DNA of 64,000 nt, from the NCBI RefSeq assembly GCF_058153355.1, contig NZ_CM177019.1; one strand, given 5' to 3'. Position 1 is the first letter of the stretch. Every line of letters starts with the position of its first letter. Of the stretch, positions 27,631-64,000 are shown piece by piece. The translations under genes and the position numbers were made by a program. Below the pieces are notes generated by a model. That model did not search any database, was not told the origin of the DNA, and was given only the letters and a program-made list of their open reading frames with translations.

Positions 27631-27649
27631 CCCGTTGTAAAGTGAGGAT

Positions 27650-34028: not shown

Positions 34029-34105
34029 GCGTTACGCCCCGGCACAGAGCGGGGGCGTGATTTCTCTCCATGCCGTGTAAATTAATTGGCTTAGGTGGAG
34101 TCGTT

Positions 34106-35647: not shown

Positions 35648-36806
35648 AGTGAAATTGGCCGTACCGACATCCGGTGGCTTTTCCGGGCTGAAGTCACTGA
35701 ATTTGCAGGTCTTCGTGATGATTGCAGCTATCATCGCAATCATGCTGTTCTTTACCTGGACCACCGATGGTGCCTACTTAAGCGCCCGTAACGTCTCCAA
35801 CCTGTTACGCCAGACCGCGATTACCGGCATCCTCGCGGTAGGAATGGTGTTCGTCATAATTTCTGCTGAAATCGACCTTTCCGTCGGCTCAATGATGGGG
35901 CTATTAGGTGGCGTCGCGGCGATTTGTGACGTCTGGCTAGGCTGGCCTTTGCCACTTACCATCATTGTGACGTTGGTTCTGGGACTGCTTCTCGGTGCCT
36001 GGAACGGATGGTGGGTTGCATACCGCAAAGTCCCTTCATTTATTGTCACCCTCGCGGGCATGTTGGCATTTCGCGGCATACTCATTGGCATCACCAACGG
36101 CACGACTGTATCCCCCACCAGCGCCGCGATGTCACAAATCGGGCAAAGCTATCTACCCGCCAGCACCGGCTTCATCATTGGCGCGCTTGGCTTAATGGCT
36201 TTTGTTGGCTGGCAATGGCGCGGAAGAATGCGCCGTCAGGCTTTGGGTTTGCAGTCTCCGGCCTCTACCGCAGTTGTCGGTCGCCAGGCATTAACGGCGA
36301 TTATCGTCTTAGGCGCAATCTGGCTGTTGAACGATTACCGTGGCGTTCCCACTCCTGTTCTGCTGCTGACGTTGCTGTTACTCGGCGGAATGTTTATGGC
36401 AACGCGGACGGCATTTGGAAGACGCATTTATGCCATCGGCGGCAATCTGGAAGCAGCACGGCTCTCCGGGATTAACGTTGAACGCACCAAACTTGCCGTG
36501 TTCGCTATTAACGGATTAATGGTAGCCATCGCCGGATTAATCCTCAGTTCTCGACTTGGCGCAGGTTCACCTTCTGCGGGAAATATCGCCGAACTGGACG
36601 CAATTGCCGCATGTGTGATTGGCGGCACCAGTCTGGCAGGCGGAGTCGGGAGCGTGGCCGGAGCAGTAATGGGGGCATTCATCATGGCTTCACTGGATAA
36701 CGGCATGAGTATGATGGATGTACCGACCTTCTGGCAGTATATCGTTAAAGGTGCGATTCTGTTGCTGGCAGTATGGATGGACTCCGCAACCAAACGCCGT
36801 TCTTGA
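35625..36806 (+). CDS. xylH: D-xylose ABC transporter permease
   Basis: 393 aa multi-TM permease overlapping xylG stop. Confidence 0.93.
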
Positions 36807-36825
36807 TTTTGATAAAAATTTTCTC

Positions 36826-36859
36826 AAAACCGGTAACGTATTACCGGTTTTGAGTTTTT
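36826..36859 (+). terminator. xylFGH intrinsic terminator
   Basis: Hairpin aaaaccggtaacgtattaccggtttt followed by gagttttt. Confidence 0.6.
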
Positions 36860-36883
36860 GCATGATTCAGCAGGAAAAGAACC

Positions 36884-38062
36884 ATGTTTACTAAACGTCA
36901 CCGCATCACATTGCTGTTCAATGCTAATAAAGCCTATGACCGTCAGGTAGTAGAAGGCGTAGGGGAATATTTACAGGCGTCACAATCGGAATGGGATATT
37001 TTCATTGAAGAAGATTTCCGCGCCCGCATTGATAAAATCAAGGACTGGTTAGGAGATGGCGTCATTGCCGACTTCGATGACAAACAAATCGAGCAAGCAC
37101 TGGCTAACGTCGACGTCCCCATTGTTGGGGTTGGTGGTTCGTATCACCTTGCCGAAAGTTACCCACCCGTTCATTACATTGCCACCGATAACTATGCACT
37201 GGTTGAAAGCGCATTTTTGCATTTAAAAGAGAAAGGCGTTAACCGCTTTGCTTTTTATGGTCTTCCGGAATCCAGCGGCAAACGTTGGGCCACTGAACGC
37301 GAATATGCATTCCGTCAGCTTGTCGCCGAAGAAAAGTATCGCGGAGTGGTTTATCAGGGGTTAGAAACAGCGCCAGAGAACTGGCAACACGCGCAAAATC
37401 GGCTGGCAGACTGGCTACAAACGCTGCCGCCGCAAACCGGGATCATTGCCGTTACTGACGCCCGGGCGCGGCACATTCTGCAAGTATGCGAACATCTGCA
37501 TATTCCTGTGCCGGAAAAATTATGTGTGATTGGCATCGATAACGAAGAACTTACCCGCTATCTGTCGCGTGTCGCTCTTTCTTCGGTCGCTCAGGGCGCG
37601 CGGCAAATGGGATATCAGGCGGCAAAACTGTTGCATCGATTATTAGATAAAGAAGAAATGCCGCTACAGCGGATTTTGGTCCCACCAGTTCGCGTCATTG
37701 AACGGCGCTCAACAGATTACCGTTCGCTGACCGATCCCGCCGTTATTCAGGCCATGCATTACATTCGTAATCACGCCTGTAAAGGGATTAAAGTGGATCA
37801 GGTACTCGATGCCGTCGGGATCTCTCGCTCCAATCTTGAGAAGCGTTTTAAAGAAGAGGTGGGTGAAACCATCCATGCCATGATTCATGCCGAGAAGCTG
37901 GAAAAAGCGCGCAGTCTGCTGATTTCAACCACCTTATCGATCAATGAGATATCGCAAATGTGCGGTTATCCATCGCTGCAATATTTCTACTCTGTTTTTA
38001 AAAAAGCATATGACACGACGCCAAAAGAGTATCGCGATGTAAATAGCGAGGTCATGTTGTAG
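36884..38062 (+). CDS. xylR: xylose operon AraC-family transcriptional activator
   Basis: 392 aa; periplasmic-binding-like sensor domain plus C-terminal AraC HTH. Confidence 0.93.
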   Translation: MFTKRHRITLLFNANKAYDRQVVEGVGEYLQASQSEWDIFIEEDFRARIDKIKDWLGDGVIADFDDKQIEQALANVDVPIVGVGGSYHLAESYPPVHYIATDNYALVESAFLHLKEKGVNRFAFYGLPESSGKRWATEREYAFRQLVAEEKYRGVVYQGLETAPENWQHAQNRLADWLQTLPPQTGIIAVTDARARHILQVCEHLHIPVPEKLCVIGIDNEELTRYLSRVALSSVAQGARQMGYQAAKLLHRLLDKEEMPLQRILVPPVRVIERRSTDYRSLTDPAVIQAMHYIRNHACKGIKVDQVLDAVGISRSNLEKRFKEEVGETIHAMIHAEKLEKARSLLISTTLSINEISQMCGYPSLQYFYSVFKKAYDTTPKEYRDVNSEVML

Positions 38063-38077
38063 CGATGATGAGAATTG

Positions 38078-38160
38078 TCGGCGTCGCATCAGGCAACGCT
38101 GCGTGGTTGTCGCATGCGACGTGAACGCCTTATCCGACCAACAAGTCGGATAAGGCTTCA
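38078..38160. repeat. REP elements between xylR and bax
   Basis: Palindromic units gcgtcgcatcaggcaacgctgcg... / gcgacgtgaacgccttatccgacc. Confidence 0.6.
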
Positions 38161-38170
38161 GGGAATACAA

Positions 38171-38995
38171 TTACATATGCGCCGCGATTAACCGTTGGTT
38201 ATCCTGGTACATTGCGAACAGGTAGTTGTTATAACTCTTCCCTTTGGTCGAGTAGCCCTTCAGCTTGTGAATCATCGCTGTGGCAGTCACTTCCTGATCC
38301 GCTTTACGCAGTTGTGCACGCGATTTACGGAACGAAGAGTAAGCCGGGTGAGTATTCAGGTTAGTGACATAGGCGCTCACCGATTCTTTGACAGAACTAA
38401 ACTGTGAGTACCCCTTCACTTTACCCGGCGCATTGGTACAACGTCCTTTCATGCACTTCATGCCGAATAGGTTGTTGTTGCTACGCGCCAGCTTCGACGT
38501 TCCCCAACCGCTTTCTGCTGCAGCCATCGTCGCCACCATACTGGTAGGAATAATGTCTACGCGTTCCAGCAAGGTATTCCACGGGATTTTTCGCGTATTA
38601 CCAGACCACTTCACCTTGTAGCGTTTGGCGATGTCTTTCAGACGCGCACGCTCAGCAGGTGACCATTGGCCCTGATACTGTTTTGAAATGAGCCAGTTAC
38701 GTTCCTCAGTAATGGCCGCATTTTGGCTGGTAATGTAAGGCATTACGGTCCGGAGAAACGCTTTTTTCCTTGGTGTTCCGGAAGGGTATTTTCGCAAATC
38801 AGGAAGTGAACTACTCTTTGCACTATTGCGAGAATACTCTTGTTTACTGCTTACCTGTTTATTACTAGCTTTAATTAAGTGGGACTTTTGACTCGCTGTT
38901 GTTGTGTGCGTCTTCGCTAACACCTCACTCGAAAACACCAGAGTGAGTAACATAAGAATCATCGCCCCATATCGTCGTATGGGAGTCAAAATCAT
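38171..38995 (-). CDS. bax: Bax protein (putative glucosaminidase domain)
   Basis: 274 aa with signal peptide and C-terminal glucosaminidase-like domain. Confidence 0.85.
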   Translation of the reverse strand: MILTPIRRYGAMILMLLTLVFSSEVLAKTHTTTASQKSHLIKASNKQVSSKQEYSRNSAKSSSLPDLRKYPSGTPRKKAFLRTVMPYITSQNAAITEERNWLISKQYQGQWSPAERARLKDIAKRYKVKWSGNTRKIPWNTLLERVDIIPTSMVATMAAAESGWGTSKLARSNNNLFGMKCMKGRCTNAPGKVKGYSQFSSVKESVSAYVTNLNTHPAYSSFRKSRAQLRKADQEVTATAMIHKLKGYSTKGKSYNNYLFAMYQDNQRLIAAHM

Positions 38996-39219
38996 CAGGT
39001 CTCCTGGTCGGATTTAATCATTCCAACACCTTATATTTTTCACAAATTTGAGAGTTGAATCTCAAATCATATCAAAAATAGCCGTCAAGAGCACCCCAAG
39101 GAATAGTCCAAATCTGAAACTATGTCACGTGTTAACGATTCAGATTGGCGCTAAATCGCAGAAAATGTGGGGTTTATCGCAAAATTCAGCCGTTTTTTGC
39201 GCGCGATCGCTCACCCTTG

Positions 39220-39256
39220 CTTCTCATCCTGTGGACTTACCGCTCAGGGATGAGTT
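39220..39256 (+). promoter_or_regulatory. malS promoter region with MalT-box-like GGATGA motifs
   Basis: ctcatcc (39223-39229, reverse GGATGAG) and gggatgag (39248-39255) 60-90 bp upstream of the malS ATG. Confidence 0.45.
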
Positions 39257-39314
39257 TTGTCTAGCTTATCGCTGGCAAACTGTCTGAAATCGCAGCAATA
39301 AGGACTCATCCGCC

Positions 39315-41345
39315 ATGAAACTCGCCGCCTGTTTTCTGACACTCCTTCCTGGCTTCGCCGTTGCCGCCAGCTGGACTTCTCCGGGGTTCCCTGCCTTTAG
39401 CGAACAGGGAACGGGAACATTTGTCAGCCACGCGCAGTTGCCCAAAGGTACGCGTCCACTAACGCTAAATTTTGACCAACAGTGCTGGCAGCCTGCGGAT
39501 GCGATAAAACTCAATCAGATGCTTTCCCTGCAACCTTGTAGCAACACGCCACCTCAATGGCGATTGTTCAGGGACGGCGAATATACGCTGCAACTAGACA
39601 CCCGCTCCGGTACACCAACATTGATGATTTCCATCCAGAACGCCGTCGAACCGGTAGCAAGCCTGGTCCGTGAATGCCCGAAATGGGATGGATTACCGCT
39701 CACACTGGATGTCAGCGCCACTTTTCCGGAGGGAGCCGCAGTCCGGGATTATTACAGCCAGCAAATTGCGATAGTGAAGAACGGTCAAATAACGTTACAA
39801 CCCGCTGCCACCAGCAACGGTTTACTCCTGCTGGAACGGGCAGAAACTGACACATCCGCCCCTTTCGACTGGCATAACGCCACGGTTTACTTTGTGCTGA
39901 CAGATCGTTTCGAAAACGGCGATCCCAGTAATGACCAGAGTTACGGACGCCATAAAGACGGTATGGCAGAAATTGGAACTTTTCACGGCGGCGATTTACG
40001 CGGCCTGACCAACAAACTGGATTACCTCCAGCAGCTGGGCGTCAATGCTTTATGGATAAGTGCCCCATTTGAGCAAATTCACGGCTGGGTCGGCGGCGGT
40101 ACAAAAGGCGATTTCCCGCATTATGCCTACCACGGTTATTACACACAGGACTGGACGAATCTTGATGCCAATATGGGCAGCGAAGCCGATCTCCGGACGC
40201 TGGTTGATAGCGCGCATCAGCGCGGTATTCGTATTCTCTTTGATGTCGTGATGAACCACACCGGCTATGCCACACTGGCGGATATGCAGGAGTATCAGTT
40301 TGGCGCGTTATACCTTTCTGGTGATGAGCTGAAAAAAACGTTAGGTGACCGCTGGAGCGACTGGAAGCCCGCCGCCGGGCAAACCTGGCATAGCTTTAAC
40401 GATTACATTAATTTCAGCGACAAAACAGGCTGGGATAAATGGTGGGGAAAAAACTGGATCAGAACGGATATCGGCGACTACGACAATCCTGGATTTGACG
40501 ATCTCACCATGTCGCTGGCCTTTTTACCGGATATCAAAACCGAATCAACTACCGCTTCTGGCCTGCCAGTGTTCTATAACAACAAAACGGATACCCACGC
40601 TAAAGCCATTGACGGCTTTACCCCTCGAGATTACTTAACCCATTGGTTAAGCCAGTGGGTCCGTGACTACGGAATTGATGGTTTTCGGGTCGATACCGCC
40701 AAGCATGTTGAGTTGCCCGCCTGGCAGCAACTGAAAACCGAAGCCAGCGCCGCACTTCGCGAATGGAAAAAAGCGAATCCCGATAAAGCGTTAGATGACA
40801 CACCGTTCTGGATGACCGGTGAAGCCTGGGGCCACGGCGTGATGCAAAGTGACTACTATCGCCACGGCTTCGATGCGATGATCAATTTCGATTATCAGGA
40901 GCAGGCGGCTAAAGCAGTCGATTGTCTGGCGCAGATGGATACGACCTGGCAGCAAATGGCAGAGAAATTGCAGGATTTCAACGTGTTGAGCTATCTTTCG
41001 TCGCATGATACCCGCCTGTTTCGTGAAGGGGGCGACAAAGCAGCAGAGTTATTGTTATTAGCGCCAGGCGCAGTACAAATCTTTTATGGTGATGAATCCT
41101 CTCGTCCGTTCGGTCCTACCGGTTCTGATCCGCTGCAAGGCACGCGTTCGGATATGAACTGGCAGGATGTTAACGGTAAATCTGCCGCTAGCGTCGCGCA
41201 CTGGCAGAAAATCAGCCAGTTCCGCGCCCGCCATCCCGCAATTGGCGCGGGCAAACAAACGACACTTTCGCTGAAGCAGGGCTACGGCTTTGTTCGTGAG
41301 CATGGCGACGATAAAGTGCTGGTCATCTGGGCTGGGCAACAGTGA
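39315..41345 (+). CDS. malS: periplasmic alpha-amylase
   Basis: 676 aa; signal peptide; GH13 catalytic motifs (GFRVDTAKH, FDVVMNHTG). Confidence 0.95.
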   Translation: MKLAACFLTLLPGFAVAASWTSPGFPAFSEQGTGTFVSHAQLPKGTRPLTLNFDQQCWQPADAIKLNQMLSLQPCSNTPPQWRLFRDGEYTLQLDTRSGTPTLMISIQNAVEPVASLVRECPKWDGLPLTLDVSATFPEGAAVRDYYSQQIAIVKNGQITLQPAATSNGLLLLERAETDTSAPFDWHNATVYFVLTDRFENGDPSNDQSYGRHKDGMAEIGTFHGGDLRGLTNKLDYLQQLGVNALWISAPFEQIHGWVGGGTKGDFPHYAYHGYYTQDWTNLDANMGSEADLRTLVDSAHQRGIRILFDVVMNHTGYATLADMQEYQFGALYLSGDELKKTLGDRWSDWKPAAGQTWHSFNDYINFSDKTGWDKWWGKNWIRTDIGDYDNPGFDDLTMSLAFLPDIKTESTTASGLPVFYNNKTDTHAKAIDGFTPRDYLTHWLSQWVRDYGIDGFRVDTAKHVELPAWQQLKTEASAALREWKKANPDKALDDTPFWMTGEAWGHGVMQSDYYRHGFDAMINFDYQEQAAKAVDCLAQMDTTWQQMAEKLQDFNVLSYLSSHDTRLFREGGDKAAELLLLAPGAVQIFYGDESSRPFGPTGSDPLQGTRSDMNWQDVNGKSAASVAHWQKISQFRARHPAIGAGKQTTLSLKQGYGFVREHGDDKVLVIWAGQQ

Positions 41346-41521
41346 CTTTCCGGCTTCCCGTTCGTCAGTACCTCGGGAAGCCGCCAACCAGGATAAAATG
41401 TCAGCCCTAATCAGAGTTGCAGGATAAAGCACCGCTCCCTCTTCAACAGAGCGATTTGCACCCCAGCAAATGTAGCGTTATTGTTACCTTCCTTGCTACA
41501 GAGTTCGACAGATATCCCGCT

Positions 41522-42775
41522 ATGACATTCTCCCTTTTTGGTGACAAATTTACCCGCCACTCCGGCATTACGCTGCTGATGGAAGATCTGAACGACGGTT
41601 TACGCACGCCTGGCGCGATTATGCTCGGCGGCGGTAATCCAGCGCAGATCCCGGAAATGCAGGACTACTTCCAGACGCTACTGACCGACATGCTGGAAAG
41701 TGGCAAAGCGACTGATGCACTGTGCAATTACGACGGTCCACAGGGGAAAACGGAGCTACTCACACTGCTTGCCGGAATGCTACGCGAGAAGTTGGGTTGG
41801 GATATCGAACCACAGAATATTGCACTAACAAACGGCAGCCAGAGCGCGTTTTTCTACTTATTTAATCTGTTCGCCGGACGCCGTGCCGATGGTCGGATCA
41901 AAAAAGTGCTGTTTCCGCTGGCACCGGAATACATTGGCTACGCTGACGCCGGACTGGAAGAAGATCTGTTTGTCTCTGCGCGTCCGAATATTGAACTGCT
42001 GCCGGAAGGCCAGTTTAAATACCACGTTGATTTTGAGCATCTGCATATTGGCGAAGAAACCGGGATGATTTGCGTCTCCCGGCCGACGAATCCAACAGGC
42101 AATGTGATTACTGACGAAGAGTTGCTGAAGCTTGACGCGCTGGCGAATCAACACGGCATTCCGCTGGTGATTGATAACGCTTATGGCGTCCCGTTCCCGG
42201 GTATCATCTTCAGCGAAGCGCGCCCGCTGTGGAATCCGAATATCGTACTGTGCATGAGTCTTTCCAAGCTGGGTCTACCAGGCTCCCGCTGCGGCATTAT
42301 CATCGCCAATGAAAAAATCATCACCGCCATCACCAATATGAACGGCATTATCAGCCTTGCACCTGGCGGTATTGGTCCAGCGATGATGTGTGAAATGATT
42401 AAGCGTAACGATCTGCTGCGCCTGTCTGAAACAGTCATCAAACCGTTTTACTACCAGCGTGTTCAGGAAACTATCGCCATCATTCGCCGCTATTTACCAG
42501 AAGATCGCTGCCTGATTCATAAACCCGAAGGGGCCATTTTTCTCTGGCTATGGTTTAAGGATTTGCCAATTACGACCGAGCAGCTTTACCAGCACCTGAA
42601 ATCGCGCGGCGTGCTAATGGTACCGGGGCACAACTTCTTCCCAGGGCTGGATAAACCGTGGCCACATACACATCAATGTATGCGCATGAACTACGTGCCG
42701 GAGCCGGAGAAAATTGAGGCGGGTGTGAAGATTCTGGCAGAAGAGATAGAAAGAGCCTGGGCTGAAAGTCATTAA
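41522..42775 (+). CDS. avtA: valine--pyruvate aminotransferase
   Basis: ORF 41417-42775; start MTFSLFGDKFTRHSG at ATG 41522 gives 417 aa; PLP aminotransferase motif SLSKLG. Confidence 0.93.
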   Translation: MTFSLFGDKFTRHSGITLLMEDLNDGLRTPGAIMLGGGNPAQIPEMQDYFQTLLTDMLESGKATDALCNYDGPQGKTELLTLLAGMLREKLGWDIEPQNIALTNGSQSAFFYLFNLFAGRRADGRIKKVLFPLAPEYIGYADAGLEEDLFVSARPNIELLPEGQFKYHVDFEHLHIGEETGMICVSRPTNPTGNVITDEELLKLDALANQHGIPLVIDNAYGVPFPGIIFSEARPLWNPNIVLCMSLSKLGLPGSRCGIIIANEKIITAITNMNGIISLAPGGIGPAMMCEMIKRNDLLRLSETVIKPFYYQRVQETIAIIRRYLPEDRCLIHKPEGAIFLWLWFKDLPITTEQLYQHLKSRGVLMVPGHNFFPGLDKPWPHTHQCMRMNYVPEPEKIEAGVKILAEEIERAWAESH

Positions 42776-42780
42776 AAATT

Positions 42781-44029
<1,249 letters not shown>

Positions 44030-44059
44030 CATGCCTGCAATCTGGGAAACCGGGGTAGA

Positions 44060-44090
<31 letters not shown>

Positions 44091-44124
44091 TCATTTCTGC
44101 AATATATTGAATTTGGAATAATTT

Positions 44125-44158
44125 GTAGGCCGGATAAGGCGTTTAAGCCGCATCCGGC
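44125..44158. repeat. REP element downstream of IS621 copy 2
   Basis: gtaggccggataaggcgtttaagccgcatccggc palindromic unit. Confidence 0.6.
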
Positions 44159-44206
44159 ATAAACAAAGCGCACTATTCCTGCGTTAAAAAACGCCGGAAA
44201 AACGTT

Positions 44207-46838: not shown

Positions 46839-47309
<471 letters not shown>

Positions 47310-47426
47310 TCGAATAATCGTCTACGCCAGAACGCCTGGGTAATGTTATTGCTCTAACTATATTAATAATTCAGGTTGCTGCACATGCAACTTGAATTAT
47401 GACAAACATAGCCTCAAGGAATAGCT

Positions 47427-47901
47427 ATGAAAAAAAATACTTGAAGCAATACTGGCGATTAATCTCGCCGTACTTTCCTGTATTGTGTTTATAAACATTA
47501 TTTTAAGATATGGTTTTCAGACAAGTATTTTATCTGTAGATGAATTGTCGCGTTATTTATTTGTCTGGTTAACCTTTATTGGCGCGATTGTGGCTTTTAT
47601 GGATAACGCCCACGTTCAGGTTACCTTTCTGGTGGAGAAACTCTCCCCCGCGTGGCAGCGACGAGTCGCTCTGGTTACCCACGCCTTAATATTATTTATT
47701 TGTGGCGCACTGGCCTGGGGCGCAACGCTAAAAACAATTCAGGACTGGAGCGATTATTCACCGATCCTCGGCTTGCCCATCGGCCTGATGTATGCCGCTT
47801 GTCTGCCCACCAGCCTCGTTATCGCATTCTTTGAGCTGCGCCTTTTATATCAACTCATCACGCGTAGCAATTCTCTAACGCCGCCACCGCAAGGAGCTTA
47901 A
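47427..47901 (+). pseudogene. yiaM: TRAP transporter small permease YiaM, apparent +1 frameshift in A-run at codon 2-4
   Basis: ATG 47427 followed by 8 A (47430-47437) leads to a stop at 47442-47444; with 7 A the frame reads [15 protein letters not shown]... continuous with ORF 47485-47901. Confidence 0.65.
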
Positions 47902-47903
47902 TC

Positions 47904-49181
47904 ATGGCTGTGCTGATTTTTCTGGGCTGCCTGTTGGGTGGCATTGCCATCGGTTTGCCTATTGCCTGGTCGCTACTGTTGTGCGGGGCGGCGCTTATGT
48001 TCTGGCTGGATATGTTTGATGTCCAGATCATGGCGCAAACGCTGGTAAACGGTGCTGACAGCTTCTCCCTGCTGGCGATTCCGTTCTTTGTACTGGCGGG
48101 TGAAATCATGAATGCGGGCGGCTTATCAAAACGCATTGTTGACCTGCCGATGAAACTGGTCGGGCATAAACCAGGCGGGTTGGGCTACGTAGGCGTGCTG
48201 GCGGCAATGATTATGGCGAGCCTTTCCGGTTCTGCTGTTGCGGATACCGCCGCCGTTGCCGCGCTACTGGTGCCGATGATGCGCAGCGCTAACTACCCGG
48301 TCAACCGTGCTGCGGGGCTGATTGCCTCTGGCGGGATTATCGCGCCAATTATTCCCCCTTCCATTCCGTTTATTATCTTCGGTGTTTCCAGCGGATTATC
48401 CATCAGTAAGTTGTTTATGGCGGGAATTGCCCCAGGCATTATGATGGGCGCAACGCTGATGCTCACATGGTGGTGGCAGGCCAGTCGTCTTAATTTACCC
48501 CGTCAGCAAAAAGCAACGAAACGAGAAATCTGGCACTCTTTTGTTTCCGGTATCTGGGCGCTATTTCTTCCGGTCATTATTATTGGCGGCTTTCGCTCCG
48601 GTCTGTTTACCCCTACCGAAGCCGGGGCCGTTGCTGCTTTCTATGCGTTATTTGTCGCCACGGTTATTTACCGTGAAATGACCTTCGCCACACTTTGGCA
48701 TGTACTTATTGGCGCGGCGAAAACCACCTCAGTGGTAATGTTTCTGGTAGCTTCGGCACAAGTTTCCGCCTGGCTAATTACCATTGCTGAACTGCCAATG
48801 ATGGTTTCTGATTTACTGCAACCGTTAGTGGAATCACCGCGTCTGCTGTTTATCGTTATTATGCTGGCGATTTTGATAGTCGGTATGGTAATGGATTTAA
48901 CGCCGACGGTGTTAATTCTTACCCCGGTATTAATGCCTTTAGTTAAAGAGGCAGGAATCGATCCGATTTACTTCGGAGTCATGTTTATCATCAACTGCTC
49001 AATCGGCTTAATTACACCGCCTATCGGTAATGTGCTTAACGTTATTTCAGGGGTGGCTAAACTCAAATTCGATGATGCAGTCAGAGGCGTTTTCCCTTAC
49101 GTCCTGGTTTTATATTCCTTATTAGCCTTATTTGTTTTTATTCCCGATCTCATCATCCTCCCGTTGAAATGGATTAATTAA
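47904..49181 (+). CDS. yiaN: TRAP transporter large permease (DctM-like)
   Basis: 425 aa multi-TM DctM family protein. Confidence 0.9.
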   Translation: MAVLIFLGCLLGGIAIGLPIAWSLLLCGAALMFWLDMFDVQIMAQTLVNGADSFSLLAIPFFVLAGEIMNAGGLSKRIVDLPMKLVGHKPGGLGYVGVLAAMIMASLSGSAVADTAAVAALLVPMMRSANYPVNRAAGLIASGGIIAPIIPPSIPFIIFGVSSGLSISKLFMAGIAPGIMMGATLMLTWWWQASRLNLPRQQKATKREIWHSFVSGIWALFLPVIIIGGFRSGLFTPTEAGAVAAFYALFVATVIYREMTFATLWHVLIGAAKTTSVVMFLVASAQVSAWLITIAELPMMVSDLLQPLVESPRLLFIVIMLAILIVGMVMDLTPTVLILTPVLMPLVKEAGIDPIYFGVMFIINCSIGLITPPIGNVLNVISGVAKLKFDDAVRGVFPYVLVLYSLLALFVFIPDLIILPLKWIN

Positions 49182-49193
49182 AAGGAAAATATA

Positions 49194-50180
49194 ATGAAAT
49201 TACGCTCTGTAACCTACGCATTATTCATTGCTGGCCTCGCTGCATTCAGTACGTCTTCGCTGGCGGCACAATCATTACGTTTCGGTTATGAAACCTCACA
49301 AACCGACTCACAACATATTGCAGCGAAAAAATTTAATGAATTATTACAGGAGAGAACCAAAGGCGAGCTGAAATTAAAACTGTTCCCGGACAGTACTCTC
49401 GGCAACGCACAAGCGATGATCAGCGGCGTGCGTGGCGGCACTATTGATATGGAGATGTCTGGCTCGAATAACTTTGCCGGATTATCACCTGTGATGAACC
49501 TGCTGGATGTTCCTTTCCTGTTCCGCGATACCGCCCACGCGCATAAAACACTCGACGGCAAAGTCGGCGATGAACTGAAGGCCTCCCTTGAAGGTAAGGG
49601 ACTGAAAGTACTGGCCTACTGGGAAAACGGCTGGCGCGATGTCACCAACTCACGCCAACCGGTTAAAACGCCTGGCGACCTGAAAGGGCTGAAAATCCGC
49701 ACCAACAACAGCCCGATGAATATCGCCGCATTTAAAGTATTTGGCGCTAACCCTATCCCGATGCCGTTTGCCGAAGTCTATACCGGACTGGAAACACGCA
49801 CTATCGACGCTCAGGAACATCCCATCAACGTCGTCTGGTCGGCAAAATTTTATGAAGTGCAGAAGTACCTATCTCTGACTCACCATGCCTATTCCCCGCT
49901 TCTGGTAGTGATCAACAAAGCGAAATTTGATGGCTTAAGCCCGGAGTTCCAGCAAGCGCTAATTTCATCTGCGCAAGAAGCGGGTAATTACCAGCGCAAA
50001 TTGGTCGCCGAAAATCAGCAAAAAATCATCGACGGCATGAAAGACGCTGGCGTGGAAGTCATCACCGAACTTGATCGCAAAGCCTTTAGCGACGTACTGG
50101 GTACTCAGGTCCGCGACATGTTTGTAAAAGATGTTCCGCAGGGCGATGAACTGCTGAAAGCCGTGGATGAGGTGCAATAA
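49194..50180 (+). CDS. yiaO: TRAP transporter periplasmic solute-binding protein (2,3-diketo-L-gulonate)
   Basis: 328 aa; signal peptide; DctP family. Confidence 0.9.
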   Translation: MKLRSVTYALFIAGLAAFSTSSLAAQSLRFGYETSQTDSQHIAAKKFNELLQERTKGELKLKLFPDSTLGNAQAMISGVRGGTIDMEMSGSNNFAGLSPVMNLLDVPFLFRDTAHAHKTLDGKVGDELKASLEGKGLKVLAYWENGWRDVTNSRQPVKTPGDLKGLKIRTNNSPMNIAAFKVFGANPIPMPFAEVYTGLETRTIDAQEHPINVVWSAKFYEVQKYLSLTHHAYSPLLVVINKAKFDGLSPEFQQALISSAQEAGNYQRKLVAENQQKIIDGMKDAGVEVITELDRKAFSDVLGTQVRDMFVKDVPQGDELLKAVDEVQ

Positions 50181-50183
50181 GCC

Positions 50184-51680
50184 ATGACGCAATACTGGCT
50201 GGGGTTAGATTGTGGCGGAAGCTGGCTAAAAGCCGGACTGTATGACCGCGAAGGCCGGGAGGCAGGCGTGCAGCGCCTGCCGCTGTGCGCATTAAGCCCG
50301 CAGCCAGGCTGGGCAGAGCGCGATATGGAAGAACTGTGGCAATGCTGCATGGCTGTCATTCGCGCCCTGCTTACCCATTCCAGCGTTAGCGGGGAGCAAA
50401 TTGTCGGCATCGGTATCTCCGCACAGGGAAAGGGCTTGTTTTTGCTGGATAAAAACGACAAGCCGCTCGGTAACGCCATTTTGTCCTCGGATCGCCGGGC
50501 GATGGAAATCGTTCGTCGCTGGCAGGAAGATAGCATCCCGGAAAAACTCTACCCGCTGACCCGACAAACCTTGTGGACCGGGCATCCGGTGTCGCTGTTA
50601 CGCTGGCTGAAAGTGCACGAACCAGAACGCTACGCGCAAATTGGCTGCGTGATGATGACGCACGACTACCTGCGTTGGTGTTTAACCGGCGTCAAAGGCT
50701 GTGAAGAGAGCAATATTTCCGAATCCAATCTCTACAACATGAGTCGCGGGGAATATGACCCGTGCCTCACCGACTGGCTGGGGATCAGTGAAATCAATCA
50801 CGCCCTGCCGCCTGTTGTTGGATCTGCCGAAATCTGCGGGGAAATCACCGCTCAGACAGCCGCACTGACCGGTCTGCAAGCGGGTACGCCCGTTGTCGGC
50901 GGCCTGTTTGATGTGGTTTCTACCGCACTCTGCGCCGGAATCGAAGACGAATTTACCCTCAATGCGGTGATGGGGACCTGGGCGGTGACCAGCGGCATAA
51001 CCTGCGGTTTACGTGACGGTGAAGCGCATCCGTATGTCTATGGTCGCTACGTTAACGATGGTGAATTTATCGTTCACGAAGCCAGCCCTACCTCTTCCGG
51101 CAATCTCGAATGGTTTACCGCGCAGTGGGGAGAAATCTCGTTTGCAGAGATCAACCAGGCTGTTGCCAGCTTACCGAAAGCCGGTGGCGATCTCTTTTTC
51201 CTGCCGTTCCTGTACGGCAGCAACGCCGGACTCGAGATGACCAGCGGTTTCTACGGGATGCAGGCCATTCACACCCGCGCACACCTGTTGCAGGCCATTT
51301 ATGAAGGCGTGGTGTTCAGCCATATGACCCACCTCAACCGGATGCGCGAACGTTTTACTGATGTGCACACCCTGCGCGTCACTGGCGGCCCGGCGCACTC
51401 CGATGTCTGGATGCAAATGCTGGCGGACGTTAGCGGACTGCGTATCGAACTGCCGCAGGTGCAAGAAACGGGCTGTTTTGGCGCGGCGCTTGCCGCCCGC
51501 GTCGGCACCGGAGTTTATCGCGATTTCAGCGAAGCCCAGCGCGATCAACAGCACCCGGTGCGTACCCTGTTACCGGATATGACCGCCCATCAGCTTTACC
51601 AACAAAAATACCAACGCTATCAGCACCTCATTGCCGCACTACAGGGCTTTCATGCCCGCGTTAAGGAGAACACATTATGA
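50184..51680 (+). CDS. lyxK: L-xylulose/3-keto-L-gulonate kinase
   Basis: 498 aa FGGY-family carbohydrate kinase. Confidence 0.9.
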   Translation: MTQYWLGLDCGGSWLKAGLYDREGREAGVQRLPLCALSPQPGWAERDMEELWQCCMAVIRALLTHSSVSGEQIVGIGISAQGKGLFLLDKNDKPLGNAILSSDRRAMEIVRRWQEDSIPEKLYPLTRQTLWTGHPVSLLRWLKVHEPERYAQIGCVMMTHDYLRWCLTGVKGCEESNISESNLYNMSRGEYDPCLTDWLGISEINHALPPVVGSAEICGEITAQTAALTGLQAGTPVVGGLFDVVSTALCAGIEDEFTLNAVMGTWAVTSGITCGLRDGEAHPYVYGRYVNDGEFIVHEASPTSSGNLEWFTAQWGEISFAEINQAVASLPKAGGDLFFLPFLYGSNAGLEMTSGFYGMQAIHTRAHLLQAIYEGVVFSHMTHLNRMRERFTDVHTLRVTGGPAHSDVWMQMLADVSGLRIELPQVQETGCFGAALAARVGTGVYRDFSEAQRDQQHPVRTLLPDMTAHQLYQQKYQRYQHLIAALQGFHARVKENTL

Positions 51681-52339
51681 GCAGACCACTTCTGCAACTG
51701 GCCCTCGACCACTCATCACTTGAAGCCGCACAGCGCGACGTTACGCTGTTAAAAGACAGCGTCGATATCGTCGAAGCAGGCACTATTCTCTGTTTAAACG
51801 AAGGGCTTGGCGCGGTGAAAGCCTTGCGCGAACAGTGCCCGGACAAAATCATCGTTGCTGACTGGAAGGTCGCCGATGCTGGTGAAACGCTCGCGCAACA
51901 GGCGTTTGGCGCAGGCGCTAACTGGATGACCATCATCTGCGCCGCACCGCTCGCGACGGTGGAAAAAGGCCACGCGATGGCGCAACGCTGCGGTGGTGAA
52001 ATCCAGATAGAGCTTTTTGGTAACTGGACGCTGGACGACGCCCGCGACTGGCATCGTATTGGCGTGCGGCAGGCGATTTATCATCGTGGTCGTGACGCGC
52101 AGGCCAGCGGGCAACAGTGGGGCGAAGCCGATCTGGCACGCATGAAGGCGCTTTCCGATATCGGCCTTGAGCTTTCCATTACCGGCGGGATTACGCCTGC
52201 TGACCTGCCGCTGTTTAAAGATATCCGCGTGAAAGCGTTTATTGCCGGGCGGGCGCTGGCAGGCGCAGCAAATCCGGCACAGGTAGCTGCCGACTTCCAT
52301 GCGCAAATCGACGCTATCTGGGGAGGCGCGCGTGCGTAA
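51677..52339 (+). CDS. sgbH: 3-keto-L-gulonate-6-phosphate decarboxylase
   Basis: 220 aa OMP-decarboxylase-like family member. Confidence 0.9.
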
Positions 52340-53192
52340 TCATCCGTTAGGGATTTATGAAAAAGCGCTGGCGAAAGATCTCTCCTGGCCGGAGCGGCTG
52401 GTGCTGGCAAAAAGCTGCGGTTTTGATTTTGTCGAAATGTCGGTGGATGAAACCGACGAGCGTCTGTCGCGCCTTGACTGGAGCGCCGCACAAAGGACTT
52501 CGCTGGTTGCCGCGATGATCGAAACGGGTGTTGGGATCCCGTCGATGTGCCTGTCCGCACATCGTCGTTTTCCCTTTGGTAGCCGTGACGACGCGGCACG
52601 CCAGCGAGCACGGGAGATCATGAGTAAAGCAATTCGTCTGGCGCGCGATCTCGGTATTCGCACCATTCAACTGGCGGGCTACGACGTCTATTACGAAGCC
52701 CATGACGAAGGCACGCAGCAACGTTTTGCCGAAGGGCTGGCGTGGGCGGTTGAACAGGCAGCCGCCGCGCAGGTGATGCTGGCGGTGGAGATTATGGATA
52801 CTGCGTTTATGAACTCCATCAGCAAATGGAAAAAATGGGACGAGATACTCGCTTCGCCGTGGTTCACCGTCTACCCGGACGTCGGCAACCTTAGCGCCTG
52901 GGGCAATGATGTTCCCGCTGAACTGAAACTGGGCATTGACCGTATCGCCGCCATCCACCTGAAAGATACCCAGCCAGTGACCGAGCATAGCCCCGGACAG
53001 TTCCGCGACGTGCCGTTTGGCGAAGGCTGCGTCGATTTCGTTGGTATCTTCAAAACGCTGCATGAACTGAACTATCGCGGATCATTTCTGATTGAGATGT
53101 GGACCGAAAAAGCCAAAGAGCCGGTGCTGGAGATTATTCAGGCGCGGCGCTGGATTGAAGCGCGTATGCAGGAGGCCGGATTTATATGTTAG
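52332..53192 (+). CDS. sgbU: L-ribulose-5-phosphate 3-epimerase
   Basis: ORF 52299-53192; start [12 protein letters not shown] at GTG 52332 gives 286 aa; xylose-isomerase-like TIM barrel. Confidence 0.88.
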
Positions 53193-53680
53193 AGCGATTG
53201 AAAGCCGACGTGCTGGCGGCGAATCTGGCGCTTTATCGTCGCTATGCAGAAATTGGCGGTATTGTGCATACCCACTCGCGCCACGCCACCATCTGGTCAC
53301 AGGCCGGGCTGGATCTCCCCGCCTGGGGCACCACGCACGCCGATTATTTCTATGGTGCCATCCCCTGCACGCGACAGATGACCGCAGAGGAGATTAACGG
53401 CGAATATGAATATCAGACCGGCGAAGTGATCATTGAAACTTTCGAAGAACGCGGCAGGAGTCCGGCACAAATCCCGGCGGTATTGGTGCATTCTCACGGT
53501 CCGTTCGCCTGGGGCAATAACGCCGCCGATGCGGTGCATAATGCCGTGGTACTCGAAGAGTGCGCCTATATGGGCCTGTTCTCGCGCCAGCTTGCGCCGC
53601 AGCTTCCTGCGATGCAAAACGAACTTCTGGATAAGCATTACCTGCGTAAGCATGGGGCCAATGCCTATTACGGGCAGTAA
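53186..53680 (+). CDS. sgbE: L-ribulose-5-phosphate 4-epimerase SgbE with 67-codon in-frame internal deletion
   Basis: 164 aa instead of about 231; N-terminus [16 protein letters not shown] joins directly to [17 protein letters not shown], omitting the conserved N-terminal class II aldolase segment. Confidence 0.75.
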
Positions 53681-53688
53681 TCTATCAC

Positions 53689-53710
53689 GCCGGGGCTTCA
53701 TTGCCCCGGC
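53689..53710. terminator. bidirectional hairpin between sgbE and convergent AraC-family gene
   Basis: gccggggcttcattgccccggc. Confidence 0.45.
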
Positions 53711-53711
53711 A

Positions 53712-54527
53712 CTACGAATTGATATGTTCCTTGCTGTAACGTCGCTTCCACGCAGCTGGCGTTAAACCGGTGTGTTTGCGAAAAATCTGTCGGAAATAGC
53801 CAACGTCATTAAACCCGCACAACGCCGCCACTTCCGTGAGCGATCGCGCTTCGCTAATTAACAGCTTTTCGGCTTCGCGCACTCGCTGGCGGTGGATTGC
53901 TTCTGTTAACGTCAGATGAAACACCCGCCGATAGACACGCCCAAGATAATCGGCATTGCAGTACAGCTCGCGGGCTAAAAGCGCCGTAGAAAGCGGGCGA
54001 TGATATTGCGTGCGGATCAGTTTCTGCGCTTTCCAGGCAAGCGTGGTACCTGCGGCATCGGCCTGTTCATCAAGACGCGCGTCACGGGTGAGTTGCTGCA
54101 AAATCAGCAGCACAATAAACTCCAGCGCCGGAGTGCGTTGATGCTTTTCCTGTTCGCTTAAGAACTGGCGAAACAGGGCCACCAGCGCCTGCGGATCGGC
54201 AACCTTCGTTTGTTGCGGCACGCTAAGATGAGTGAGCCAGCGCGGGTCGCTATCCGGCGCTTTAACCTCAAAATGCAGCCAGTAAAATTTGAGATCGGCG
54301 GGAAAATCCTCTACCCCAACATGCTGTCGGTTCGGCCAGAGTAATAAACTCTCTCCCGCATCGACCAGAAATATCCGCTCTTCTTCCTGAATCGTTAATC
54401 GACCTTTTTCGACAAAGATAATTTCCCATGACTCCAGCCGCCTTGCCGGATGCCTCCCTACGCCACGGGAAATAAATAATCCACCATTTTGCACTTTAAT
54501 CGGTAACGTCATGGATAATTCGAGCAT
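53712..54527 (-). CDS. AraC-family transcriptional regulator (cupin sensor domain plus HTH)
   Basis: 271 aa; C-terminal AraC HTH signature (GFNDVGYFRQIFRKHTGLTPAAWKRR); divergent from transporter gene. Confidence 0.85.
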   Translation of the reverse strand: MLELSMTLPIKVQNGGLFISRGVGRHPARRLESWEIIFVEKGRLTIQEEERIFLVDAGESLLLWPNRQHVGVEDFPADLKFYWLHFEVKAPDSDPRWLTHLSVPQQTKVADPQALVALFRQFLSEQEKHQRTPALEFIVLLILQQLTRDARLDEQADAAGTTLAWKAQKLIRTQYHRPLSTALLARELYCNADYLGRVYRRVFHLTLTEAIHRQRVREAEKLLISEARSLTEVAALCGFNDVGYFRQIFRKHTGLTPAAWKRRYSKEHINS

Positions 54528-54752
54528 TGATATGTAATTTCCCGCTTATTCATTAATGATTAAACACATTACCTTTTGATTATTAATCAAAAACATTAAT
54601 TTCACCTGATCCAATTCACACTTTTAAATTCAGGTCGGAATCGTCACCTTTTTTTACTCTTTTCTCGCCTTGTTGATATTCCCGTTCACGGCAGAATTAA
54701 TCATGTCATTTCAATAAAACTAAAAATTGCTCCCTATGCACGAGGAATATCT

Positions 54753-56153
54753 ATGACCTCTACACCGATTACTACCGCTGATATCGCTAAAGGTAAAATT
54801 GACGATGCGTTATCTGTACGGGAAAAAATAGGCTACGGCCTGGGTGACGCAGGCGGCACCGTAATAACTTGCCTGATCATGAACTTTCTCACCTTTTTCT
54901 ACACCGACGTTTTTGGCTTAACTCCGGCGCTGGTCGGCACGCTGTTTATTGCACTGCGCGTGTTTGATGCCATCTCCGACCCGGTGATGGGCGTCATTGC
55001 CGACCGGACGCAAAGCCGCTGGGGGCGTTTTCGTCCGTGGCAGCTATGGATTGCCGTCCCTATTGGCATTATCGGCATCCTGACGTTCACCGTACCGGAC
55101 GCCAGTATGGGGGTGAAGATCGCCTGGGCGTTCGGCACCTATCTGCTGCTTTCCGTCGGTTATACCGCCATCAACGTGCCGTACTGCGCGCTGATCAACA
55201 CCATGACGACCCGCCACAATGAGGTAATTTCGTGCCAGTCCTGGCGATTCGTTCTCTGCGGCGTAGCGGGATTTCTGGTTTCGGTTGGCCTGCCGTGGAT
55301 GGTAGATCTCTTCGGTCAGGGTAATGCCGCGCGCGGCTATCAACTGGGCGTCGGCGTGCTGTGCGCCATCGCTGTGGTGATGTTCCTGTGCTGTTTCTTC
55401 TGGGTTCGTGAACGGGTGCCACTCTCCACAATGGGGAAATTTACCCTGCGCGAACATCTTGCCGGGCTGCGAAACAACGACCAACTGCTGCTGATGCTGG
55501 TCATGTCTTTCCTGCTGATTAACGTCTTTAATATTCGCGGCGGTGGGTATATGTACTTCATTACCTACGTCTTACAAGGCAGTACGGGCTACACGTCGCT
55601 GTTCTTCACTATGGTCACCTTCGCCTCCATTATCGGCTCGGTGATTGTCAGCCCGTTAACGCGACGTTTCGATACCGTCAAAATTTACTACTACACCAAC
55701 CTGCTCCTCGCCGCGCTGGCGGTGTTGATGTGGTTCCTGCCTTCTGGCCCGGCTTATCAAACGCTGTGGCTGGCGGTGATCCTTGGTAATGGCGTGATTC
55801 TTGGCTTCACATTGCCATTGCACTTCTCATTGATGGCCTTTGCCGATGACTACGGCGAGTGGAAAACCCGCGTACGTTCTTCCGGCATGAACTTCGCCTT
55901 CAATCTGTTTTTCATCAAGCTGGCCTGGGCCTCCAGCGCCGGGATCATCAGCCTGCTGTTTATTTTTGTCGCCTACCAGCCTGGCGTGGAAAACCAGACC
56001 GCCAGTTCGCTTGGCGGGATCGCGGCGATGGAAACATTGCTGCCTGCGCTGTTCCACCTGCTGCTGGCGATGGCGATCCGCTTTTGCAAACTCAATAACC
56101 CTATGATGTCACGCATTGCTAGCGACCTGCGTCAGCGTCATGTACAGCCTTAA
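54753..56153 (+). CDS. GPH-family glycoside-pentoside-hexuronide:cation symporter
   Basis: 466 aa, 12 TM; MelB/YicJ-like N-terminal motif ([24 protein letters not shown]). Confidence 0.85.
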
Positions 56154-56163
56154 GGAGCACAAG

Positions 56164-58134
56164 ATGAACATTTCGGAAGTCGATCTGCATAAACTGACGG
56201 TCAGCGATCCGTTCCTCGGTCAGTACCAACAACTGGTCCGCGACGTGGTGATTCCTTATCAGTGGGATGCCTTGAACGATCGTATCCCAGAAGCGGAACC
56301 CAGCCATGCGATTGAAAACTTTCGCATTGCCGCAGGACTGCAAGACGGTGAATTTTACGGGATGGTGTTTCAGGACAGCGACGTCGCCAAATGGCTGGAA
56401 GCGGTAGCCTGGTCGCTGTGCCAGAAGCCGGATGCCGAACTGGAAAAAACTGCTGACGAGGTAATCGAACTGGTCGCTTCCGCCCAGTGCGAAGATGGCT
56501 ATCTCAATACTTACTTTACGGTAAAAGCGCCCGAAGAACGCTGGAGCAATCTGGCGGAGTGTCATGAACTTTACTGCGCCGGTCATCTGATTGAAGCCGG
56601 AGTCGCCTTCTTCCAGGCCACGGGCAAGCGGCGCTTGCTGGAAGTGGTTTGCCGTCTGGCCGATCATATCGACAGCGTATTTGGTCCAGGTGAAAGTAAG
56701 TTACACGGTTATCCTGGTCATCCGGAAATTGAACTGGCACTGATGCGCCTGTATGAAGTGACCGAAGAGCCGCGCTACCTGGCGCTGACGAACTATTTTG
56801 TCGAACAGCGTGGTGCGCAACCGCACTATTACGACTAGGAATATGAAAAGCGCGGGCAGACCTCGCACTGGCACACCTACGGCCCGGCGTGGATGGTGAA
56901 AGACAAAGCCTACAGCCAGGCACATTTGCCCATCGCACAGCAGCAAACCGCCATTGGTCACGCGGTACGTTTTGTCTACCTGATGACCGGCGTCGCGCAT
57001 CTCGCGCGTTTAAGTCACGATGAAAGCAAGCGTCAGGACTGCCTGCGGCTGTGGAACAATATGGCCCAGCGTCAGTTATATATTACCGGCGGCATTGGCT
57101 CACAAAGCAGCGGCGAAGCGTTCAGCAGCGATTACGATCTGCCGAATGACACGGTATACGCCGAAAGCTGTGCTTCCATCGGCCTGATGATGTTCGCCCG
57201 GCGAATGCTGGAAATGGAAGGCGACAGTCACTATGCCGATGTGATGGAGCGCGCACTGTACAACACCGTGCTCGGCGGCATGGCGCTGGATGGCAAACAT
57301 TTCTTCTATGTGAATCCGCTGGAAGTACATCCAAAATCGCTGAAATTCAACCATATCTACGATCACGTTAAGCCGATCCGCCAGCGTTGGTTTGGTTGCG
57401 CTTGTTGTCCGCCAAATATCGCCCGCGTGCTAACCTCGATTGGTCATTATCTCTACACGCCGCGTGAAGATGCGTTGTATATCAACATCTACGCAGGAAA
57501 CAGCATGGAAGTGCCGGTAGAAAATGGCACGCTGCGTCTGCGGGTTAGCGGAAACTATCCGTGGCAGGAACAGGTGACAATTGCGGTTGAATCGCCCCAG
57601 CCGGTGCGTCATACGCTGGCTTTACGTCTGCCGGACTGGTGCACACAGCCGCAGATTACATTGAATGGGGAAGAGGTCGAGCAGGATATTCGTAAAGGGT
57701 ATTTGCACATTACCCGCGAATGGCAGGAGGGCGACACGCTGAATCTGACTTTGCCAATGCCGGTACGTCGCGTTTACGGTAACCCGCTGGTGCGTCACGT
57801 CGCCGGAAAAGTGGCGATTCAGCGCGGCCCGCTGGTGTATTGCCTGGAACAGGCCGACAACGGCGAGTCACTGCATAACCTGTGGCTGCCCGCCGATGCG
57901 CCATTTACGACATTTGAAGGTAATGGATTGTTCCGCCATAAGATCTTAATCCAGGCACCGGGTTACCGGTATGAACAGAGCAATCCAGAGCAGCAACCGC
58001 TGTGGCATTACGACAGCGCGCCAGCCAAACGCCAGCCGCAAACTCTGACATTTATCCCGTGGTTTAGCTGGGCTAACCGGGGTGAAGGCGAAATGCGGAT
58101 CTGGGTGAATGAGGAAAACCAGTGCCATCCGTAG
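56164..58134 (+). pseudogene. GH127-like (DUF1680, beta-L-arabinofuranosidase family) glycoside hydrolase interrupted by in-frame TAG
   Basis: ORFs 56116-56838 and 56893-58134 are in the same frame, separated by TAG at 56836-56838; combined about 655 aa; RBS aaggag before ATG 56164. Confidence 0.7.
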
Positions 58135-58215
58135 GTAGGATAAGGCGCTCGCGCCGCATCCAACCTAGGGTGCACATTGCCTGATGCGACGCTTAACGCG
58201 TCTTATCAAGCCTGA
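58135..58215. repeat. REP elements between GH127 gene and yiaT
   Basis: ggataaggcgctcgcgccgcatcc and gcctgatgcgacgcttaacgcgtcttatcaagcct units. Confidence 0.6.
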
Positions 58216-62947: not shown

Positions 62948-64000
62948 TCAGAACAGCCCCAACGGTTTATCTGAGTAGCTCACCAGCAGGCACTTGGTTT
63001 GCTGATAATGCTCAAGCATCATCTTATGGGTTTCGCGCCCAATACCCGACTGCTTATAGCCACCAAACGCCGCATGTGTCGGGTAAGCGTGATAACAGTT
63101 GGTCCACACTCGCCCGGCCTGAATGCCGCGCCCCATCTTATAGGCCAGATTACCGTTGCGGCTCCAGACACCAGCCCCCAGACCATATTGCGTGTCGTTC
63201 GCCAGCTCCAGCGCTTCTTCCATCGTTTTGAAGGTGGTTACCGCCAGCACCGGACCAAAAATTTCTTCCTGGAACACGCGCATATTATTCTGACCAAACA
63301 GAATCGTCGGTTCGAGGTAGTAGCCGTCTTTCAGTTCGCCTTCCAGCAGCTTGCGCCGCCCACCGGTGAGCACGTCTGCGCCCTCTTTTTTACCGATATC
63401 AATGTAGTTGAGGATGGTTTCCAGTTGCCCGTGCGAAACTTGCGCCCCCATTTGCGTCACGCTATCGAGCGGGTTACCGCTGCGAATGCTTTCGACACGG
63501 CGGATGGCGCGTTCCATAAAGCGTTCGTAGATAGACTCCTGCACTAAAGCACGGCTTGGACAGGTGCAAACTTCGCCCTGGTTAAAGGCAAACAGTGCAA
63601 AGCCTTCCAGCGCTTTATCGAAAAAGGCATCTTCTTCATCCATCACATCAGCAAAGAAGATATTGGCGACTTGCCGCCCAGCTCCAGGGTTACCGGAATA
63701 ATATTTTGCGTGGCGTACTGCATAATTTGTTGGCCCACTTCCGTTGAGCCGGTAAACGCCACTTTAGCGATGCGTTTCGAGGTCGCCAGATATTCGCCAA
63801 TTTCCCCACCAGCACCGTTGACCACGTTCACCACGCCCGGCGGCAGTAAATCACCGACGATTTCCATTAGCAGCAGTACAGAAAGCGGGGTAAGACGTGC
63901 GGGTTTCAGCACCACACAGTTGCCCGCCGCCAGCGCGGGAGCCATTTTCCAGCTCGCCATCAGCAGCGGGAAGTTCCACGGAATAATCTGCCCCACCACG
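62948..64000 (-). pseudogene. aldB: aldehyde dehydrogenase B, 3' portion, with -1 frameshift
   Basis: C-terminal 232 aa (ORF 62948-63646) and upstream segment (ORF 63643-63999) are in different frames; the frame breaks after LELGGKSP where the plus strand reads gatattggcga (TT at 63663-63664) instead of an expected TTT; gene continues beyond the window. Confidence 0.7.

Follow-up and report, generated by a model that had tools for sequence, protein, structure and literature searches.

A single amber codon at a probable Dcm hotspot splits a GH127 glycoside hydrolase gene in an accessory sugar islet of Escherichia coli

The two open reading frames that lie downstream of the transporter gene in an accessory sugar islet of E. 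coli are the two halves of one glycoside hydrolase family 127 (GH127) gene, which is interrupted by a single amber codon. In the window, by which we mean the whole 64,000-nucleotide stretch that was analysed (contig NZ_CM177019.1 of assembly GCF_058153355.1), codon 225 of this 656-codon gene reads TAG (56836–56838), in the context CAC TAT TAC GAC TAG GAA TAT GAA AAG. This TAG differs from the codon of intact alleles by a C>T transition at 56836: the seven E. coli alleles that were aligned all have CAG (Gln) here. We consider it likely, with a probability of about 0.8, that the amber codon arose by deamination of 5-methylcytosine at a Dcm site through a single C>T change, that the enzyme was thereby lost, and recently so, and that the gene has been hit independently at Dcm sites several times, this event included. 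As judged from the sequence comparisons, what is added here to the preliminary description of this DNA is the position of the stop on a Dcm-hotspot site, its recurrence on other haplotypes, and the presence of lesions in the neighbouring yiaK-S operon.

The interrupted gene and its product

Translation of positions 56116–58134 in a single frame gives ...PHYYD*EYEKRG... with no second internal stop, which bears out the earlier statement that an in-frame TAG is the sole separator of the two hydrolase frames. The mechanically delimited ORFs span 56116–56838 and 56893–58134. The gene itself starts with the ATG at 56164 and ends with a natural TAG stop at 58132–58134, which is followed by a G. An AAGGAG Shine-Dalgarno sequence at 56152–56157 is located six bases ahead of this ATG and overlaps the TAA stop of the transporter gene, and for this reason the transporter and GH127 genes are probably co-transcribed and translationally coupled. 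The gene is equal in length (1971 bp) to its intact orthologues of 656 aa and aligns with the seven E. coli alleles with 0 gaps and 7–66 substitutions, so that it presents an in-frame stop at a sense codon of the orthologues in an otherwise collinear gene, as expected of a nonsense pseudogene. The preliminary description had also proposed a single nonsense mutation, and the alignment with these alleles confirms a change of one base, from CAG to TAG. The features of the gene are as follows.

56164–58134, plus strand: 656-codon gene of the GH127 (beta-L-arabinofuranosidase) family, reduced to a pseudogene by its single internal amber codon (aligned without gaps to intact orthologues of 1971 bp; Pfam; PDB)
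56836–56838, plus strand: amber codon TAG at codon 225, ancestral CAG (Gln) (seven aligned E. coli alleles; 63-bp probe)
56835–56839, no strand assigned: former Dcm site, CCAGG to CTAGG, with the mutated base 56836 as inner cytosine (orthologue context; hotspot rule in PMC12606429)
56164–56838, plus strand: 224-aa N-terminal ORF, which covers the first half of the (alpha/alpha)6 catalytic barrel and contains no catalytic residue (PF07944 model positions 3–212 of 376)
56893–58134, plus strand: C-terminal ORF of 413 aa starting from Met244, containing E318, E334, C336, C414 and C415 and two beta-sandwich domains and lacking residues 1–243 (Pfam; PDB alignment)

Comparison of the two ORFs with Pfam places model positions 3–212 of PF07944, the (alpha/alpha)6 barrel, in the 224-aa fragment and positions 212–375 in the 413-aa fragment, whereas PF20736 (middle domain) and PF20737 (C-terminal domain) are both found in the 413-aa ORF. 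The three-domain architecture of GH127 is thus present, with its first domain split over both ORFs, and since both halves match the same catalytic-domain model end to end, the two ORFs do not lie side by side by chance. When codon 225 is repaired, the protein aligns over its full length with PDB entries 4QJY (E=2e-236), an enzyme of Geobacillus stearothermophilus, and 3WKW (E=4e-153), the HypBA1 enzyme of Bifidobacterium longum. The likeness to these GH127 enzymes extends to full-length collinear homology, the three domains and the conserved Glu, Cys and Zn-site residues; the difference is that the copy in the window ends at residue 224. By sequence homology the product is a glycoside hydrolase of family GH127, and among characterised enzymes its closest relatives are beta-L-arabinofuranosidases. 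A search of the literature for the E. coli GH127 islet or the substrate of its enzyme returned nothing specific.

In the alignment to 3WKW, residues E318, E334, C336, C414 and C415 correspond to E322, E338, C340, C417 and C418 of HypBA1, which we take to provide the Glu acid/base, the Cys nucleophile and the Cys/Glu zinc ligands. All five are invariant or nearly so across 120 orthologues, as expected of a GH127 catalytic and zinc site, and all five are encoded 3' of the amber codon. Translation would therefore end with residue 224, halfway along the catalytic barrel, before the nucleophilic Cys, the acid/base Glu and the Zn ligands are reached. Because the stop precedes every catalytic residue and splits the barrel, the truncated enzyme is almost certainly inactive, a loss predicted from the position of the stop. 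The next in-frame start after the stop is Met244 (ATG 56893), and no convincing Shine-Dalgarno sequence is found in the sequence upstream of it, GGCCCGGCGTGGATG.

The best 120 homologues, which come from Escherichia, Salmonella, Klebsiella, Kluyvera, Citrobacter, Enterobacter, Kosakonia and Scandinavium, have Q at position 225 in E. coli and I, E, D, V or L elsewhere, between flanking Y-D and E-Y residues that are invariant. Counts of nonsynonymous and synonymous differences between intact alleles and the window, with the stop excluded, are 10/23 and 17/48, which as a rough estimate suggests purifying selection on the gene where it is retained.

Position of the mutation on a Dcm site and its recurrence

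The wild-type context GAC CAG GAA contains the pentamer CCAGG (56835–56839), and the surrounding sequence reads GACCAGGAA in orthologues and GACTAGGAA in the window. The ancestral site is thus a CCWGG in which the C>T change falls on the inner cytosine, converting CCAGG to CTAGG. Dcm methylates the inner cytosine of CCAGG to 5-methylcytosine, and deamination of 5-methylcytosine gives thymine in a T:G mismatch that is normally restored by very-short-patch repair. The changed base is the cytosine that Dcm methylates, and sites of this kind are known hotspots of mutation, so that the gene is best seen as an ordinary young pseudogene. The proposed course of events is that hydrolytic deamination of 5-methylcytosine at 56836 would have produced thymine, that the resulting T:G mismatch would have escaped very-short-patch (Vsr) repair, and that CTAGG would then have been fixed. 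The dcm and vsr genes fall outside the 64-kb window, and an active Dcm in the strain is assumed from the norm of the species; dcm is missing from some E. coli, for example B strains.

In lacI the amber hotspots result from GC>AT transitions that affect the second C of CCAGG (Coulondre et al. 1978, reviewed in PMC12606429), and very-short-patch repair works on CTWGG/CCWGG (PMC2715241). The present allele resembles the lacI hotspots Am6, Am15 and Am34 (Coulondre, Miller, Farabaugh and Gilbert 1978; reviewed in PMC12606429) in being a CAG>TAG change at the second C of CCAGG and in the repetition of hits, and differs from them in that it is found in natural isolates and in an accessory sugar gene, whereas the lacI alleles come from a laboratory mutant collection, and in that methylation here is presumed. 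The wild-type GH127 gene contains nine CCWGG sites. There are 258 single-base paths to a nonsense codon, 71 of them transitions, and only 5/258 (5/71 transitions) lie on Dcm-methylated cytosines, namely those at W83, Q151, Q225, Q252 and Q597. Of the CAG codons of the gene, four (151, 225, 252 and 597) are thus of the CCAGG type and 25 are not.

A second 224-aa fragment of different sequence, P0146, is found among the 40 of 105 cluster members listed. The contigs that encode it (L022/L024 and L023/L027) carry TAG at codon 225 and are 51–59 substitutions (~3%) away from the window allele. TAG225 therefore occurs on two clades with CAG alleles between them, the pattern expected of recurrent, independent mutation at a hotspot, with a conversion tract of <162 bp as a possible alternative. 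Recombination from the second TAG225 haplotype is not supported, since neither L022 nor L023 has the window-private synonymous SNPs at 56721 and 56742. Between 56743 and 56903 the window does not differ from L023, and because the two SNPs are not common to the second haplotype, a single origin of TAG225 would need a tract below 162 bp; TAG225 could thus have arisen once, without recurrence, and been moved by a very short conversion event.

It was predicted beforehand that amber alleles would occur at the next in-frame CCAGG, at codon 252, and these were then found in L030, L031 and L032, which encode 251-aa fragments and have the sequence AGC TAG GC around codon 252, with CAG retained at codon 225. 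L032 is one base apart from the wild-type L019, the difference being the codon-252 change itself, and L030 and L031 are >45 substitutions from L032 and from one another, so that TAG252 is present on two or three backgrounds. Nonsense alleles of the gene are also found away from Dcm sites. One of these is Q219* (CAA>TAA), and the other is a natural allele in L053 (positions 1501–3471) that combines Y272* (TAC>TAG) with CAA at codon 225; the latter codon is the synonymous product that would be expected from bottom-strand deamination at the same Dcm site. Exact look-ups of Q151* (Dcm site) and Q215* (non-Dcm control) returned contig ends only. Dcm sites account for at least 4 of 6 independent nonsense origins, with P ~3e-4 against all transition paths and ~9e-3 within codons 200–275. 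These values come from a post hoc test with a conservative count of origins among the 40 of 105 cluster members listed, and on that account the enrichment is supportive and not decisive.

A plain replication error giving C>T in a CCAGG, with no part played by Dcm methylation, is an unlikely origin for the allele. The same base change would be expected from it, C>T transitions are the commonest substitutions, the Q219* and Y272* alleles demonstrate nonsense mutation outside Dcm sites, and Q151, the one further Dcm amber site that was looked up by exact match to the window-type sequence, yielded no truncated allele. Against such an error, however, the same base is changed on at least two diverged haplotypes and the codon-252 CCAGG on two or three more, although Dcm paths make up only 2–7% of the nonsense target. 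Deamination of 5-methylcytosine is thus most likely the origin of the stop, as far as the distribution of alleles can tell.

A 63-bp probe with the TAG at its centre finds 2,298 complete E. coli genomes, each with exactly one mismatch, so that TAG225 is present in 0/2,298 of these; TAG252 is likewise present in 0/1,848 complete RefSeq E. coli genomes, and no genome of the species-representative set contains a 33-mer that includes the TAG. By these counts TAG225 and TAG252 are rare, young alleles. The nearest alleles to that of the window are 7–10 substitutions away and all have CAG at codon 225. The lineage-private changes in the GH127 gene comprise two synonymous substitutions (56721 and 56742), the stop, and two non-synonymous substitutions in the last five codons. 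Inactivation therefore appears to be recent, because there is no further stop or frameshift and there are only four other lineage-private substitutions. Relaxed selection after inactivation was considered as well, and the changes (two synonymous, the stop and two non-synonymous) are too few to assess it. The two non-synonymous changes, K652N and H653Q, are adjacent to each other at 58119–58122, and REP-like palindromes are located at 58140–58215, 3' of the GH127 stop.

Read-through and the reality of the stop

A leaky "pseudo-pseudogene", in which a near-cognate tRNA-Gln or a suppressor would read UAG at low frequency and give some full-length active enzyme, is doubtful. Read-through is typically low in wild-type cells, the base at position +4 is G and not the favoured C, and the only tRNA gene within the 64-kb window is that for tRNA-Pro(CGG), which leaves no suppressor tRNA there. 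On the other hand, position -1 is C, insertion of Gln would restore the exact ancestral protein, and because residue 225 is variable (I/E/D/V/L/Q) among orthologues, any residue inserted at this position should be tolerated. Read-through of Salmonella pseudogenes mostly concerns UAG, which is usually decoded as Gln, and C is enriched at position -1 (PMC9122581). The UAG pseudo-pseudogenes of Salmonella Typhi and Paratyphi A described in the same work resemble the GH127 gene in having an in-frame UAG produced by C>T, C at position -1 and Gln as the likely residue on read-through; the window gene differs from them in having G at position +4 and in that its read-through is hypothetical.

Vsr activity has been reported to stimulate CTAGG-to-CCAGG changes (PMC2715241). 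One might therefore imagine a weak, reversible switch for this enzyme, formed by the two in-frame CCAGG sites (codons 225 and 252), in which deamination would turn the gene off, Vsr-stimulated reversion would turn it on again, and a leaky state would lie between, with UAG read as Gln and the exact wild-type protein restored. We regard this as highly improbable; if it were true, the recurrent amber alleles would be transient "off" states and no dead ends.

A sequencing or assembly error, with a strain that truly has CAG, is very improbable. The absence of TAG from all 2,298 complete E. coli genomes would fit an error, as would the homopolymer-length change (A7 to A8) that the window also has in yiaM, a type of site that is prone to errors. 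Substitution errors are rare in finished assemblies, however, and a Logan contig from SRR31441161, a read set that may be the window's own source, is 100% identical to window positions 46893–58206 (11,314 bp), including the TAG, the A8 tract of yiaM and the sgbE deletion described below. The identity of the allele in this independently assembled read set makes a sequencing error unlikely, the exact 413-aa C-terminal product is present on three Logan contigs, and the same TAG is found in many other read sets on the other haplotype. The 11.3-kb contig and these three contigs indicate that the stop is real and no artefact. Short Logan contigs were rejected as additional support for the TAG, because 9/10 places listed for the exact 224-aa product are contig-end truncations; in the 13 contigs that were read, the next base, where present, opens a sense codon (C in five, A in one).

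That the enzyme is naturally split into two subunits, or that the UAG is a site of programmed recoding, is hardly credible: both halves do stay open and gene callers annotate two genes, but the best 120 orthologues are all single proteins of 649–656 aa with three GH127 domains each, the PDB homologues are single chains, the break falls in the middle of one barrel domain, close alleles have CAG, the second ORF is devoid of a ribosome-binding site of its own, and the UAG is not conserved among orthologues, being present in 0/2,298 genomes at a residue that is otherwise Q, I, E, D, V or L. The lengths of the orthologues are by themselves sufficient to refute this explanation at the level of sequence, and with them the possibility, envisaged in the preliminary description, that orthologues are naturally two proteins.

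The islet, its neighbourhood and its distribution

The islet consists of three genes located between sgbE (annotated araD) and yiaT, which encode an AraC-family regulator, an MFS transporter and the GH127 enzyme. The first two are as follows.

53712–54527, minus strand: AraC-family regulator, intact, 271 aa, divergently transcribed (Pfam; alignment to orthologues)
54753–56153, plus strand: MFS/GPH-type sugar transporter, intact, 466 aa (Pfam; alignment to orthologues)

Both proteins are full length, with 1 and 0 lineage-private substitutions, respectively, and neither is an enzyme. The earlier claims that the regulator and transporter stay intact and that the hydrolase is the only enzyme of the islet are therefore upheld. 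As no gene follows GH127 in its unit, and yiaT is transcribed towards it, no polar effect of the stop on other genes is expected.

The window was compared gene by gene with the closest complete genome for further lesions, and the following were found.

47428–47440, plus strand: yiaM (TRAP small permease, yiaK-S operon), frameshift from A7 to A8
53186–53680, plus strand: sgbE (L-ribulose-5-phosphate 4-epimerase, annotated araD), 201-bp in-frame deletion
About 13582 (gene 13060–13759), minus strand: yhjY, +1 frameshift through a one-base insertion (A) after codon 59
About 63664 (gene 62948–64000+), minus strand: aldB, -1 frameshift through a one-base deletion in an AAA run
About 26790–29312: IS66-family element at the 5' end of yiaA, whose first codons are replaced
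About 42776–44206: IS110-family element between avtA and ysaA

In yiaM the extra A lies directly after the start codon (ATG AAA AAA AAT ACT TGA), which leads to a stop at codon 6. The deletion in sgbE removes residues 17–83 between two copies of an 11-bp direct repeat, ATCTGGCGCTT, and leaves 164 aa of the normal 231. Both of these lesions are also present in Logan contig L014. Since both fall within the yiaK-S operon, which directly precedes the islet, the sugar-catabolic neighbourhood appears to be decaying in this lineage. The frameshift in yhjY leads to a first stop at codon 69, the intact protein having 232 aa, and in aldB the change from GTCGCCAAATATC to GTCGCCAATATC results in an apparent shift of frame in a gene that extends past the end of the window. 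The IS66-family element comprises TnpA (26858–27286), TnpB (27283–27630) and a transposase (27650–29221). The 326-aa transposase of the IS110-family element (43000–43980) matches the NCBIfam model "IS110 family RNA-guided transposase", and the element presumably resembles IS621.

Among 5,426 complete E. coli genomes, none exceeds 99.0% identity to the segment from xylB to avtA (window positions 29800–42700, 12.9 kb). Together with the absence of the TAG-containing 33-mer from the representative genomes, this suggests that the source is an under-sampled E. coli or Shigella-like lineage. Contigs L022–L024, L027, L030 and L031 belong to a separate E. coli lineage in which yiaT-yiaW is deleted, so that GH127 abuts hicB/hicA. 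In this lineage the C-terminus of GH127 is changed to ...NEETSA*, and the amber codon is number 225 in some samples and number 252 in others.

By megablast the GH127 gene is present at ≥80% coverage in 2,314 of the 5,426 complete E. coli genomes, with a best identity of 99.5%, and in these it is always annotated as "glycoside hydrolase family 127 protein" and located beside an "MFS transporter". About 2,445 of the 5,426, including MG1655 derivatives of K-12, have only a remnant of ~190 bp, which indicates that the islet is an accessory trait that has already been deleted in large parts of the species. The corresponding interval of MG1655 contains a 102-bp fragment of the AraC gene and a 189-bp fragment of GH127, which we take to be ysaC and ysaD. 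The K-12 remnant and the window share inactivation of the same islet at the same chromosomal position; K-12 has kept only fragments, whereas in the window strain the islet is still complete, carries one point lesion and so stands earlier in the process of loss.

For annotation, the ORFs of 224 and 413 aa should be joined as a single GH127 pseudogene that contains an internal stop, rather than listed as two proteins. The allele is a clean natural case of the textbook Dcm hotspot; it belongs to a well-known category of event and opens no new question. In wild E. coli this accessory gene has been inactivated repeatedly, at two bases that can be predicted. It is intact in every complete genome in which it occurs, wholly deleted in K-12-like strains and amber in wild isolates, so that the wild isolates represent an early, point-mutation stage of its loss, and the pattern of point lesions together with deletion marks the plant-glycan utilisation islet as dispensable.
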